Sequence record: MN445184
Length of the DNA: 64,000 bases
Direction: 5' to 3' (one strand)
DNA from: Escherichia phage vB_EcoA_4HA11
Below the pieces are notes generated by a model. It was not told the DNA's origin, made no database searches, and saw only the letters and a program-made list of their open reading frames with translations. The position numbers were made by a program, and so were the translations under genes. Shown here piece after piece: positions 1 through 36,138 of this stretch (positions are counted from its first letter, which is position 1; every line of letters begins with the position of its first letter).

Positions 1-202
1 ATGGAATGTGTTGTCATTGATATTCTCAAGAGCAGAAATAGCTTGTTCAAATACGTGTTCGTTGAGCGAAGTCTTTTCCAGCATAATAGACAACGCTTCA
101 ACCGAAGGACGAGCATTATATTCGCAAGTGTAATGGTCAATGAGACCGAATATAATTTTCTCGCCTTCGTTATCGAAATAATCGGCTTTCAAATACGGCT
201 GG
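1..202. repeat. Direct repeat copy A, identical to 318-519
   Basis: Compared base by base: 1-202 equals 318-519; identity ends at 203 (t) versus 520 (a). The plus-strand ORFs 1..237 and 249..551 share a 67-aa translation for the same reason. Confidence 0.9.
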
Positions 203-581
203 TGTTCATCTCATCTTTACGTTTCTCATCACCATAGATGTTGACGGCGTGTTTGATCGCATTATGAACAGCTTTCTGCCGCGCCCAACTTTCTGTTTCT
301 TTTACAAGCCATTCCTGATGGAATGTGTTGTCATTGATATTCTCAAGAGCAGAAATAGCTTGTTCAAATACGTGTTCGTTGAGCGAAGTCTTTTCCAGCA
401 TAATAGACAACGCTTCAACCGAAGGACGAGCATTATATTCGCAAGTGTAATGGTCAATGAGACCGAATATAATTTTCTCGCCTTCGTTATCGAAATAATC
501 GGCTTTCAAATACGGCTGGATCTTTCTTTGATATTCTTCGTTATAGATTAATTGGGAAAGCACGACAGATTCGAGTAACAT
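189..581 (-). CDS. 41: Replicative DNA helicase gp41-like (DnaB family), N-terminal ~131 aa only; frame broken at the 202/203 repeat junction
   Basis: ORF track 189..587; ATG at 581. MLLESVVLSQLIYNEEYQ...HQEWLVKETESWARQ matches the N-terminus of T4 gp41 as recalled. The ORF stops at 189 inside repeat copy A because the 317-bp offset is not a multiple of 3. The rest of a normal ~475-aa helicase is not in the window. Confidence 0.75.
   Translation of the reverse strand: MLLESVVLSQLIYNEEYQRKIQPYLKADYFDNEGEKIIFGLIDHYTCEYNARPSVEALSIMLEKTSLNEHVFEQAISALENINDNTFHQEWLVKETESWARQKAVHNAIKHAVNIYGDEKRKDEMNTSRI
318..519. repeat. Direct repeat copy B, in native helicase context
   Basis: Flanks on both sides (203-317 and 520-581) continue the gp41-like reading frame, so this copy is the native one. 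Confidence 0.9.
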
Positions 582-587
582 TGGCAA

Positions 588-917
588 CTACCCCACCAAA
601 ATTTTGTTGTAATCCTGAGCATTTTGCTGTATCAGATCAACTAAGATATCCCCAGACACCACAGTGAACAAGTCATTTTCTTTCAAATTAACAAATAACA
701 AACGCCATGGTTTCTTCAATATATCTGTTGTAAAGGATAACCGAGGCTCTCCATTATCTAAATGGACACCCACTTTCCCTATACGAAATTGAACACCGCG
801 GAACTTGCCTTCCGTTATTTCGATAATAGCTAACTGATCAGAACCAGGGTCGATGATTTTGTAATTAACGGGGGAGTCTCCTCCCCCTGCAATATTACTC
901 GGTTGTTTTGATGACAT
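588..917 (-). CDS. Hypothetical protein, at the position of T4 gene 40 between uvsX and 41
   Basis: 109-aa ORF, ATG start, 23-nt overlap with the uvsX end; identity rests on position only. Confidence 0.4.
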   Translation of the reverse strand: MSSKQPSNIAGGGDSPVNYKIIDPGSDQLAIIEITEGKFRGVQFRIGKVGVHLDNGEPRLSFTTDILKKPWRLLFVNLKENDLFTVVSGDILVDLIQQNAQDYNKILVG

Positions 918-1980
918 TATCGAGGCGCTCCAGCATATCTGCAGGCATAACCGAACTCTGAGAGATACCGAACATGTTGTTCACATCGTCAACAAAGTCT
1001 GGGTTTTCCAGCAACGGATACCAGAAGTCATCCCCCAGCTCTGCCTTACGATATTTCTTTTCTTTTTCTGGATCAAACCCGCCTTTGGCAGTACGTTGAT
1101 ACCAAGAACCACTCACCAAATCCACATACCCCAGCATGCGCGCAATTTCTAACATACCGGACCAACGGTCAATACCGCCTTCATACAACACAGTGACAGG
1201 GAACTTGGCTTTTTCACGGACAAAGCGGCCTTTCATAATGTTGACTGTAAACTGCCATCCCAAAAGGTCTTTGTCTTCTTTTACTTGAGAACGCGTGATG
1301 AACCACAATTGGTTAGAAGACAGGAACCCCTGTTTACCGCCTTTGATGTTCGGCTCGGCGTATTGGTTCCCGATTTCATCATAGTACGAGTTGATCCATA
1401 CCAAAACGAATTTCTTTTCAGTGACCAACGGGGTGATAACACGCCAAAAACTATTGAGAGCGCGAGCGCGGGTCATATCTTGTGTGTCTTTGCCCGCGAT
1501 GGCATCATCAACTTCTTTGGTAGACGGCAACTGGCTGATTGAGTCAATGAATACGATGATCTTGTCACCTTTCTGAGCATCATTCAGAAGCTGTGTCAGT
1601 TTGATCTTCGTCTTTTCAACGTTTTCAATCGGCAGATACAAGACACGGTCCATGTCAATACCCATAGATGTCCAGTAGTTTTCATTCGCACCGCCTTCTG
1701 AATCCGCGAAGATACAAATTGCATCAGGAAACTTATCCATGTAAGCCTTAACATCCACCAGCCCAAACATGGTTTTGAATGTACGAGAATCCCCCACCAA
1801 CTGTTTGATGCCTGATATCAGACCACCATCAATACGACCGGACCAGGCCAAATTCAGAATAGGAATACCCGTACTGCAAATAATGTCAGGCTTCAGCGCA
1901 TCGGTCTTTGACAGCACTTCGGCATTCGGGTCCAGTTTCTTTGCTGTCTTGAGCATGCGAGCCATCAATGAATCGGCCAT
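895..1980 (-). CDS. uvsX: UvsX recombinase (RecA-like)
   Basis: 361 aa. Blocks VLVWINSYYDEIG, GWQFTVNIMKGRFVREKAKF and GGIDRWSGMLEIARMLGYV resemble T4 UvsX; order uvsX-40-41 as in T4. Confidence 0.9.
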   Translation of the reverse strand: MADSLMARMLKTAKKLDPNAEVLSKTDALKPDIICSTGIPILNLAWSGRIDGGLISGIKQLVGDSRTFKTMFGLVDVKAYMDKFPDAICIFADSEGGANENYWTSMGIDMDRVLYLPIENVEKTKIKLTQLLNDAQKGDKIIVFIDSISQLPSTKEVDDAIAGKDTQDMTRARALNSFWRVITPLVTEKKFVLVWINSYYDEIGNQYAEPNIKGGKQGFLSSNQLWFITRSQVKEDKDLLGWQFTVNIMKGRFVREKAKFPVTVLYEGGIDRWSGMLEIARMLGYVDLVSGSWYQRTAKGGFDPEKEKKYRKAELGDDFWYPLLENPDFVDDVNNMFGISQSSVMPADMLERLDNVIKTTE

Positions 1981-3040: not shown

Positions 3041-3603
3041 TTCCGATCCCTATAAAATTTGACGAATGGTTGCCAACCTTCAAATGGGTTAACAAATTCA
3101 TAATCAACTTCCATCTTATCAATGAAAGCCTCAATGTCATCCTCTATGATACCACCGCGATCCGCCTTTGAAATGCGGGTGATGGGACATTTAGTGCTCA
3201 GCGCCCATTCATATTCCTGAGGGGTGCGCAAATCACTCACGATATAATGAACGTGTGGGTTCTGCTCCACCAAAGGAAGTTGATATCGTTTAAAGAATGA
3301 CAGGAACAGGTCTGGTTGTACATAACGCAAGCCCGTATCGCTGCCCAGATGAAGCCAGATCTGCCGTGGGGTTAAGCCCTTGGGGTTATCAGGGTGTACG
3401 AATGGAACGTCCTTCACAGCATCCTCCACCTCCGCTGGTAGCCATGGGTAGATGAAATTGGCGACACGTCGCAGTTCATCTGAGAAAGACAGACGACGAA
3501 TATCCTTATCACCCTGAATATGATGAAAACTGATCAGGGACTCCAAACAGAAGTCCTTGCCGGAGCGCTTGCGCCCCGTGAAGAATTCAAGGTTCTGGTA
3601 CAT
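3037..3603 (-). CDS. Deoxynucleoside monophosphate kinase (gp1-like)
   Basis: N-terminal P-loop LEFFTGRKRSGKDF resembles T4 gp1 LIFLSGVKRSGKDT; ATG at 3603 overlaps the stop of the upstream gene (ATGA). Confidence 0.6.
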   Translation of the reverse strand: MYQNLEFFTGRKRSGKDFCLESLISFHHIQGDKDIRRLSFSDELRRVANFIYPWLPAEVEDAVKDVPFVHPDNPKGLTPRQIWLHLGSDTGLRYVQPDLFLSFFKRYQLPLVEQNPHVHYIVSDLRTPQEYEWALSTKCPITRISKADRGGIIEDDIEAFIDKMEVDYEFVNPFEGWQPFVKFYRDRK

Positions 3604-4643
3604 CATTCGCCATACCCCCACATAAATTTCTGATCAACAGGGGAATGCAGTAATGCAGTACGAAGACCGTCATCAGCGATACGGCGTTTGTCAATTTTGG
3701 TATCATTGAGGCGACACCACAGGCAATATGACATATCCATCATCAATCCCGTGTCTGCTTGATATCCTTTCAGATGTTCTCTGATTTTACCAAAATCACT
3801 GCCGATGTCACAGTGATGTAACACGCCGAGGAATAGATTACAAATATCTTTTTGCGACTTCACTTTTTCTGAAGAGAATTCCAGCAAAGAATTGTACATC
3901 CCAGAAGAAGTTTTGGTCTTCTTAGTGATACCCCCGAGTTGTTTCCGACTAACTTCATTGTTGTAATAATGAAGATTGTTAGAAAACAGTTTGTAATACC
4001 CAACTTCGACATTCAGCACTTTCGCCAGAACTTCTTGCAGGATAGAGAATTCAATGAAATTGATTGAACTCATGCCCCACAAGACATCTTGGCTGCGGTT
4101 AATGACAGTGATATTCAATCGCCCTTCTGTTATACTGAACAATAGAGCAAGATTACAGATCATGTCCTTGGTCTTGGCTTCTCCAGTTTCACTATGGGCG
4201 GCCAAACCTTCATCTGAGTCCAGCGCCGGATCATAGATGGTGAGATACGCCTGACGGGTGTTGGGATTATTACGCAGACGGCTGATGACACTATCCAACT
4301 GGCCATTATTGTACAGACGTGGGCCATACGCGCCTCGCCAGGTTACACCGTCATCAGAGAAGTTGGCGGCGCGGGGTAAGACTTTCGAAAGGAAACGGAT
4401 ATCATTACGTCCGGACAACACCCAGAATGTCTCACCGATGGCAGCAATTGCCGACGAGTTGCGGCCTTCAACGGAAAGCCAACGGTCACGTGGATCTGAT
4501 ACTGTAATTGTTACACCATCAATGAAACGAGTGCCGTCAGTGTTAATCTCTGCGTTGCCAGGATCTGACTCAATGCCGTGTTCACGGATGGCCAACACAG
4601 CCTTCTTCAGCATATCATTATTGTTTAAAGCAAAAATTTCCAT
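3603..4643 (-). CDS. Thymidylate-synthase-fold pyrimidine C5 transferase (thymidylate synthase or dUMP hydroxymethylase) with ~90-aa C-terminal extension
   Basis: 346 aa from ATG 4643. TS motifs ETFWVLSGRNDIRFL, VTWRGAYGPRLY, NPNTRQAYLTIYDP, catalytic-Cys region KDMICNLALLF, NRSQDVLWGMSSINFIEFS. Asn sits where TS has the uracil-recognising Asn and T4 dCMP hydroxymethylase has Asp. Confidence 0.75.
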   Translation of the reverse strand: MEIFALNNNDMLKKAVLAIREHGIESDPGNAEINTDGTRFIDGVTITVSDPRDRWLSVEGRNSSAIAAIGETFWVLSGRNDIRFLSKVLPRAANFSDDGVTWRGAYGPRLYNNGQLDSVISRLRNNPNTRQAYLTIYDPALDSDEGLAAHSETGEAKTKDMICNLALLFSITEGRLNITVINRSQDVLWGMSSINFIEFSILQEVLAKVLNVEVGYYKLFSNNLHYYNNEVSRKQLGGITKKTKTSSGMYNSLLEFSSEKVKSQKDICNLFLGVLHHCDIGSDFGKIREHLKGYQADTGLMMDMSYCLWCRLNDTKIDKRRIADDGLRTALLHSPVDQKFMWGYGE

Positions 4644-35022: not shown

Positions 35023-36138
35023 TTATGCATCCAATGTGTTCAGGCGTTGTTGGGCAGCATTATAGAATTGTTCTGCTAATTTGCAAACATTTTCAGGGCG
35101 CTGGATATTATTGGCGGCGCGGATATCTTTCTTCAAGACTTCCACCGCATCAGTAGCCACCATCTCTTCAGTGACTTCTACCTTCTCGGAAGCAACAGTA
35201 ATCGTCCGATCGATGAAGTTGTAATCGATGCATTTACAGCGCTTCAATGCGTCACAGAACTTTTCATAATGCTTGGCATTGTCACGGTTCTGTACAATCA
35301 CCTTAACGATTTGCCCTTCAATACCCAAAACATTGTTTAACCAATCGGGGTCGATCCAATTACCTTCAGTATCAGAAGACATTTGGGTGTAGTCGTATTC
35401 CACGAACCGGAACAACGTTTGTTGTTCGTTGTTGGGGATAAACAATTCCCCGCCATTCATGTCGTCTACATAGAATCCTCGGTTCGTCCCGTCTTTGTGG
35501 TCTTCCCAGGTAAGGTGATAAGGAGTCCCAATATACTGAATGTTACCTTCCATCGAACGGGTATGGAAATGTCCGGTATCCACGCGCTCGAATTTCGAAA
35601 GGAGCGCCAAGTCGATCTGACCTTTATCACATACAGAGGACTGGTACATTTTGAACCCTGCCAACTCCAGATGCGCAAAACAGTACTTGGCGTCTGTATC
35701 TTGTATCGCTTTAATGGACGCATCATAGTTCTCTTTGTTAATCCACGGCAGTAGGAGGGTCTTGACACCTTCAATCATTACTTCAGTTGGTTCGCTGTAA
35801 TAATGATAAACATCCGGTGCCAATTCATTAAGATAAGAAGGCCAGTTAATACGATTGGACTCTTCTAACGTGATATCATGGTTGCCGACGATGCCATTCC
35901 ATTTAATACCTGCTTTGCGCAGCGCTGGCGTCAATTCATCTTTCAACCAATCTTTATCGCGACCATACATGAATTTGCGAACATCAAACGTATCACCAAA
36001 TTGCCAAACTTCTTTAATATCGGCGTCAACCAATTCTGGAATAAAATAATTGATGAGATAATTCTTTATGAATTCTCGAACGTAACGGGAACCATTACGG
36101 CTCCCAATATGTAAATCGCCAATTTTAGCAATCGCCAT
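35023..36138 (-). CDS. 47: Recombination endonuclease subunit gp47 (Mre11/SbcD-like phosphoesterase)
   Basis: 371 aa; calcineurin-like phosphoesterase motifs IGDLHIG, GDTFD, GNHD, GHFH. Confidence 0.85.
   Translation of the reverse strand: MAIAKIGDLHIGSRNGSRYVREFIKNYLINYFIPELVDADIKEVWQFGDTFDVRKFMYGRDKDWLKDELTPALRKAGIKWNGIVGNHDITLEESNRINWPSYLNELAPDVYHYYSEPTEVMIEGVKTLLLPWINKENYDASIKAIQDTDAKYCFAHLELAGFKMYQSSVCDKGQIDLALLSKFERVDTGHFHTRSMEGNIQYIGTPYHLTWEDHKDGTNRGFYVDDMNGGELFIPNNEQQTLFRFVEYDYTQMSSDTEGNWIDPDWLNNVLGIEGQIVKVIVQNRDNAKHYEKFCDALKRCKCIDYNFIDRTITVASEKVEVTEEMVATDAVEVLKKDIRAANNIQRPENVCKLAEQFYNAAQQRLNTLDA

Follow-up and report, generated by a model that had tools for sequence, protein, structure and literature searches.

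An exact repeat at the left edge of the Escherichia phage vB_EcoA_4HA11 genome record truncates the gp41-type helicase gene and is very probably an artefact of assembly or finishing

The stretch of DNA analysed here, called the window in the following, comprises 64,000 nucleotides of Escherichia phage vB_EcoA_4HA11. By its sequence the window is DNA of a Kuttervirus (Ackermannviridae, Cba120/Vi1 group). Its first 3000 bases match 270 phage records, the best of which (Se_EM1, Cba120 and PM10) reach about 99% identity, and over positions 1-620 the identity is at least 99% in 118 phage records. The gene order at the left edge is that of Cba120, namely orf065 (gp41 primase-helicase, 474 aa), orf067 (109 aa) and orf068 (UvsX), and the synteny of Se_EM1 matches as well. 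The features of this region, together with two genes from further inside the window, are listed in Table 1. A megablast comparison of the window with phages, plasmids and E. coli genomes returned no match of 100%; the best long matches showed 97.6-99.8% identity and were mosaic. One mosaic part lies between about 2800 and 5500, where identity to Cba120, Se_EM1 and LPEK22 is about 80-86%, compared to 96-99% to the left of this stretch. A thymidylate-synthase-like protein (3603-4643), encoded there beside an HMUDK_HMUD1 kinase-like gene, is identical in Vi01, ECML-4 and others. This mosaic part looks like the result of a recombinational exchange of a thymidine-hypermodification gene block. No tRNA genes were detected in the whole 64 kb.

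Table 1 Features at the left edge of the window and two window genes with exact protein matches. Positions refer to the window.
Feature	Position	Strand	Description
Extra copy A1	1..202		identical to 318-519; left limit is the sequence edge; right end non-natively joined to 203
Non-native junction A/B	201..204		breakpoint 201/202 or 202/203
Truncated helicase CDS, 130 aa	189..581	-	ATG 581-579 to TGA 191-189; deposited as QKE54698.1
Segment B	203..317	-	single-copy native helicase sequence, codons Gln89-Thr127
Native copy A2	318..519	-	context intact on both sides; helicase codons Gln22-His88 and last base of Ile21
Conserved hypothetical protein, 109 aa	588..917	-	directly upstream of helicase; native synteny
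UvsX/RecA-like recombinase	895..1980	-	Pfam RecA and T4_UVSX_C; native synteny; anchors gp41-uvsX region of Kuttervirus
NrdA, 775 aa	19106-21433	-	QKE54727.1 (exact protein match)
gp46-like endonuclease, 777 aa	32687-35020		QKE54746.1 (exact protein match)
Sequence from window position 1	1 onward		ATGGAATGTGTTGTC...
Sequence from window position 203	203 onward		TGTTCATCTCATC...

At the very edge of the window lies an exact direct repeat. As a preliminary description of this DNA had stated, positions 1-202 equal 318-519 at 100% identity in a self-comparison, with a start-to-start spacing of 317. A scan of all 64,000 bases revealed this pair as the sole direct or inverted repeat of at least 35 nt. 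Chance recurrence of an exact 202-mer in 64 kb is not possible, and the copies A1 and A2 show zero differences. The exact identity of what had been called a 202-bp repeat was thereby reproduced, with one refinement as to its length: the left boundary of the repeat is a mere sequence edge, at which the left unit is cut and has no left flank. The figure of 202 bp is therefore an edge-cut view of a 317-bp period rather than a property of the underlying event. Altogether, 1.64 copies of a 317-bp unit are visible, with one unit (window 203-519) made up of segment B and A2; two full head-to-tail units with unique flanks on both sides are not seen. Tandem Repeats Finder did not report the repeat, because under two units are present. 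As the period equals 3x105+2 and is thus 2 mod 3, the helicase frame is broken from segment B into the first copy. This had been described correctly; the ORF running from 581 to 189 has 130 aa.

To locate the non-native sequence, we aligned the window to Cba120 and Se_EM1 and inspected 31 related loci. Positions 203-620 are native and contiguous in the relatives, including both borders of the 318-519 copy; this contiguity in Cba120, Se_EM1 and the 31 inspected loci bears out the earlier view that A2 sits in intact helicase context. Left of position 202 the relatives read ...GGAGAGTTGGAATCG before TGTTC, which is the rest of the helicase, and the window there reads ...CAAATACGGCTGG before TGTTC. 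Apart from G202, the relatives' sequence left of 202 is unrelated to window 1-201, and the join at 203 is non-native, as had been proposed. According to the alignment and the inspected loci, the microhomology at the breakpoint is 1 nt, G202 alone being common to the window and the native sequence. With only 1 nt shared, there is no slippage substrate at the breakpoint. This is weak evidence against a duplication, as duplications can arise without microhomology. Two further ideas about the junction were considered and dropped. An extended microhomology, indicated by BLAST matches of divergent relatives reaching position 190, turned out on inspection to be chance similarity (CAAAGTAGGGATGT versus CAAATACGGCTGG), and an origin by restriction and ligation was rejected, as the GATC at the native boundary of A with the sequence to its right (C) is not retained in the junction.

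The junction is found nowhere else among the collections searched. A 34-mer across it was absent from IMG/VR viral contigs, GTDB genome contigs and JGI metagenome contigs. When an 80-nt junction query was compared with 50,697 phage records, its halves mapped about 318 nt apart and in opposite order in all matches listed, which means that these records have the single-copy arrangement. Probes from segment B and a variable 58-mer matched other Kutterviruses only. In every relative listed, the 620-base query falls on 419 bases of the record, i.e. on one copy, and in the inspected relatives the helicase has about 474 aa with a DnaB_C domain (PF03796). Independent genomes of the same lineage thus contain one copy and an intact gene. 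In the comparison with related phage genomes that had been suggested as a check, the repeat is thus single-copy in the relatives listed, and the helicase of those inspected continues left of 202 as an intact 474-aa gene.

In the window, this gene is cut short. Residues 1-127 of the ORF are identical to the native gp41-like helicase (P0138/P0141) and are followed by Ser-Arg-Ile and a stop, in contrast to the native protein, which continues past residue 127 with Ile-Pro-Thr-Leu... and on to the DnaB_C ATPase domain. The program-made ORF list gives the truncated helicase as 132 aa, with the start moved upstream to a TTG at 587. A Pfam search of the truncated ORF yielded a DnaB N-terminal match only, and this was below cutoff. 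The ORF ends at residue 130 without the C-terminal RecA-like ATPase domain PF03796 (Walker A GAINAGKT in relatives), a domain that was found in every relative examined through gene calls. N-terminal homology and conserved synteny both connect the ORF to the DnaB/gp41 replicative helicase family; the earlier identification as a gp41 helicase was right, and the expected length of about 475 aa corresponds to 474 aa in the relatives. On the minus strand of A1 the helicase frame is open over Gln22-His88 and then runs off the edge. The rest of the 4HA11 helicase was absent among cluster representatives as well as among nine guessed N-terminally shortened products and a 78-aa plus-strand ORF; for the guessed remainders, the sole match was to a gene call in ENA that starts from Met61 and is unrelated.

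The neighbourhood of the helicase gene varies in other genomes. In some Kuttervirus relatives, a homing-endonuclease gene for a 160-aa HNH_3 protein (PF13392) separates the 109-aa gene from the start of the helicase (insertion-site loci L018 10081-10563, L020 10081-10563, L021 10075-10557 and L016 10057-10591). ECML-4 has an apparent remnant of this gene, and the window has 6 nt only at that place (582-587). Judged from these loci, the HNH_3 gene is an insertion polymorphism adjoining the helicase 5' end. Two distant gp41-like helicases with 45-47% identity (P0227, 806 aa; P0233, 816 aa) bear intein/homing-endonuclease domains (PF05203/PF05204 and PF14528), which indicates that in other lineages selfish elements target the helicase gene.

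If taken as biology, the arrangement would mean that 317 bp of the helicase gene (unit 203-519) are truly duplicated in tandem, whether fixed or carried by some of the phages only, and the assembler would have broken the contig inside the repeat and left no more than 1.64 copies visible. A head-to-tail duplication would give exactly this A-to-B junction, and exact repeats that exceed the read length do cause assemblers to break, which applies to 317 bp if reads had 300 nt as in the sister phage. Small duplications are also tolerated by headful-packaging phages. Under such a duplication the gene would be split into the 130-aa N-terminal fragment and a downstream ORF without the first 24-60 residues. 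The open helicase frame in A1 fits this, and the TTG codon of Leu25 (192-190) overlaps the stop TGA of the truncated ORF as TTGA (192-189), which could conceivably allow coupled re-initiation; on the other hand, no Shine-Dalgarno-like sequence is visible before this TTG in the window sequence.

Gene 41, the T4 homologue of the helicase gene, is essential. Spontaneous tandem duplications are known from classical T4 and lambda genetics in headful-packaging phages, and viable ones normally keep an intact essential gene. The duplication assumed here would lie wholly within the essential gene and shift its frame, so that no intact copy would be left. Furthermore, more than 100 near-identical relatives and the public contigs searched all lack it, its copies do not differ, the microhomology at its breakpoint is limited to the single G, and the anomaly coincides with the edge of the record. 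Taken together, we regard a real duplication as very unlikely. A shade less likely still is the reading in which the duplication is real, the phage is viable and the helicase is expressed as two polypeptides, i.e. as a naturally split replicative helicase. In this split, the 130-aa fragment would be accompanied by a helicase without 24 residues (TTG re-initiation) or without 60 residues (from Met61). A true duplication would mean that an essential replicative helicase is split in nature.

The GenBank annotation of Escherichia phage vB_EcoA_4HA11 (157,406 bp) contains the 130-aa product as QKE54698.1, named 'DNA primase/helicase'. Since this protein spans the junction and was deposited, the junction belongs to the deposited record, and wrapping of the window is very unlikely to have made it. 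Wrapping would mean that the record runs B A C ... Z B A with an untrimmed terminal overlap of 317 bp, and that the window was cut across the end-to-start join, starting 202 bases before the record end; the junction would then not be in the record itself. Wrapping would account for the junction, for a 317-bp period of about one 300-nt read and for the cut at the edge without any further step, and it agrees with the absence of the junction from every linear contig searched (IMG/VR, GTDB and JGI). However, QKE54698.1 reads across the junction, and a CDS across the origin is not made by the usual phage annotation pipelines. In addition, the chance that a window begins in the last 317 bases of the record is about 0.2%. 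As a CDS across the record origin would be needed, we consider wrapping a highly improbable source of the junction. The alternative offered by the preliminary description, an assembly or circular-wrap artefact, is thus retained in its first part, and the second is made unlikely by the deposited junction-spanning protein.

The accession numbers of the 4HA11 proteins rise in window order, and exact matches were obtained for the truncated helicase and for the two other proteins in Table 1. From the annotated junction-spanning CDS and the improbability of a random window start at this place it follows that the record almost certainly starts at window position 1; windows commonly begin where a record begins, but not inside one given 317-bp stretch of a 157-kb record. 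The repeat thus touches the end of the sequence, with the copy beginning at window base 1 and, by this reasoning, at record base 1. The record opens with an ATG that is the reverse complement of the His88 codon; this carries no weight in the argument, and the 78-aa plus-strand ORF starting from that ATG is not among the deposited proteins. The other large genes of the window have lengths identical to those of the relatives, and often identical sequences too. Hence, the assembly is not poor in general, and its sole defect lies at the record edge. NrdA of 4HA11 was deposited with 775 aa versus 758-759 aa for relatives in the same 90% cluster; its start codon was probably called about 17 codons too far upstream, and a real extension is unlikely. 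No copies of proteins unique to 4HA11 were found in Logan/SRA-derived data, and a literature search found no genome paper on 4HA11, the mentions being limited to host-range and taxonomy tables.

Genomes of Kuttervirus show terminal redundancy and circular permutation (PMC10282790), and contigs of circularly permuted genomes bear duplicated ends that need to be trimmed by hand (PMC9409062). 4HA13, a sister phage from the same laboratory, was sequenced with 2x300-nt MiSeq reads and assembled with DNASTAR Lasergene, and its contigs underwent polishing and renewed assembly (PMC9699118). The extra piece in 4HA11 measures 202 nt and is thus shorter than one 300-nt read, this read length being that of 4HA13 and not 4HA11's own. 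We considered whether positions 203 and 519 might be physical genome termini, in which case the helicase gene would contain a direct terminal repeat of 317 bp and junction reads would derive from molecules joined end to end. Ligated termini, or sequenced concatemers with direct terminal repeats, would give exactly such a junction, and a terminal repeat has been reported for 4HA13 (PMC9699118). Against this, published descriptions give Kuttervirus genomes random ends, with circular permutation and terminal redundancy (PMC10282790, PMC9409062), relatives that are 100% identical over the region show no ends at this site, and a terminus inside an essential gene would be odd. Moreover, a terminal repeat occurs only once per unit in concatemers, which would leave no A-to-B junction. 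Fixed ends are the least probable of the explanations considered, and extremely so.

We conclude that the 202-base copy arose at the left end of the 4HA11 GenBank record as an artefact of assembly or finishing, with a probability of about 0.88. The preference for an artefact over a real duplication that had been expressed on the basis of the sequence edge is shared by us, and it is now backed by the single-copy relatives, a junction unique to this record, the 1-nt breakpoint and the position at the edge of the record. A further point is that the record, read literally, describes an essential replication protein without its whole ATPase domain in a phage that was nevertheless propagated as an isolate, which favours the artefact.

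How the error arose we infer as follows. With terminally redundant, circularly permuted virion DNA, the point at which an assembled contig opens is arbitrary, and in this case it would have been inside the gp41-type replicative helicase gene. At the open end, a piece of at most one read length from 317 bp downstream would then have been attached before the true sequence. This may have happened in three ways. The two contig ends may have overlapped by about 317 bp and been joined without merging or trimming, with the sequence subsequently re-opened nearby; a junction read or chimeric read may have overhung the left contig end; or the assembly graph may have been broken by a minority of junction reads. 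The real genome would most likely have one copy and a normal helicase of 474 aa, whose remaining 347 codons would lie at the other end of the record. Accordingly, the annotated 130-aa 'DNA primase/helicase' is, with the same high likelihood, a product of the artefact and not a real truncated protein. Some considerations speak against this reading. From a plain untrimmed overlap one would expect a copy at each end of the record and not two copies 317 bp apart at one end, so that an extra step is needed, be it a join, a re-opening or a junction read. Also counting against it is that neither the ten guessed sequences nor the cluster representatives yielded a 4HA11 product for the rest of the helicase. 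Furthermore, reads with the A-to-B junction may physically exist, which would leave room for a real minority variant.

As biology the repeat matters little. It is a data-quality issue that calls for a curation flag on vB_EcoA_4HA11 and QKE54698.1: an ordinary data defect, in which an apparent end duplication in a public phage genome puts a bogus 130-aa 'DNA primase/helicase' into protein databases. Gene-content comparisons, counts of 'truncated' replication genes and core genomes of the Ackermannviridae would be misled by QKE54698.1. In the clustering used here, this protein (cluster of P0136) represents a 90%-identity cluster that includes the full-length 476-aa Gp41 of Vi01.

Several other public records attracted attention during this work. 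MT499896.1 (Salmonella phage vB_SentM_sal1, locus L023 10063-11323) ends inside the helicase about 164 nt before the stop, and its helicase CDS was not called; it is a second record opened inside gp41 with the annotation lost. The gp47/SbcD-like nuclease has 371 aa in the window (35023-36138) and in most relatives, and it is truncated in the deposited sister phage vB_EcoM_3HA11 (P0056, 258 aa) and in rabagast (P0057, 263 aa). These short nucleases may be sequencing or annotation defects or real truncations. OR844944.1 ('Enterococcus phage Efm 3-10', 38.5 kb; H100) and MN871475.1 ('Pseudomonas phage Pa-sanjiao'; H62, H86) contain 97-100% Kuttervirus DNA, and probably carry wrong host labels or stem from contaminated samples.

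Compared to known systems, the arrangement shares with the tandem duplications of T4 and lambda the head-to-tail topology of the junction, the exact copies and the short unit. It differs from them in that it is internal to a gene, shifts the frame, occurs in one record only and lies at the record edge. With the gp41/DnaB-family helicase of Kuttervirus (Cba120 orf065 and Vi01 Gp41; 474-476 aa) the window has residues 1-127 and the synteny in common, whereas the window ORF stops at 130 aa without PF03796, the corresponding part lying beyond the record edge. Untrimmed or mis-joined contig ends of permuted phages likewise leave an exact duplicate at the end of a sequence that opens at an arbitrary point in a gene, and its length would also be of the order of a read if the reads of 4HA11 were like those of 4HA13. 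In the classical case of untrimmed contig ends the copies are found at opposite ends (for example 77 bp from SPAdes, PMC9409062), whereas in 4HA11 they lie at the same end, 317 bp apart.
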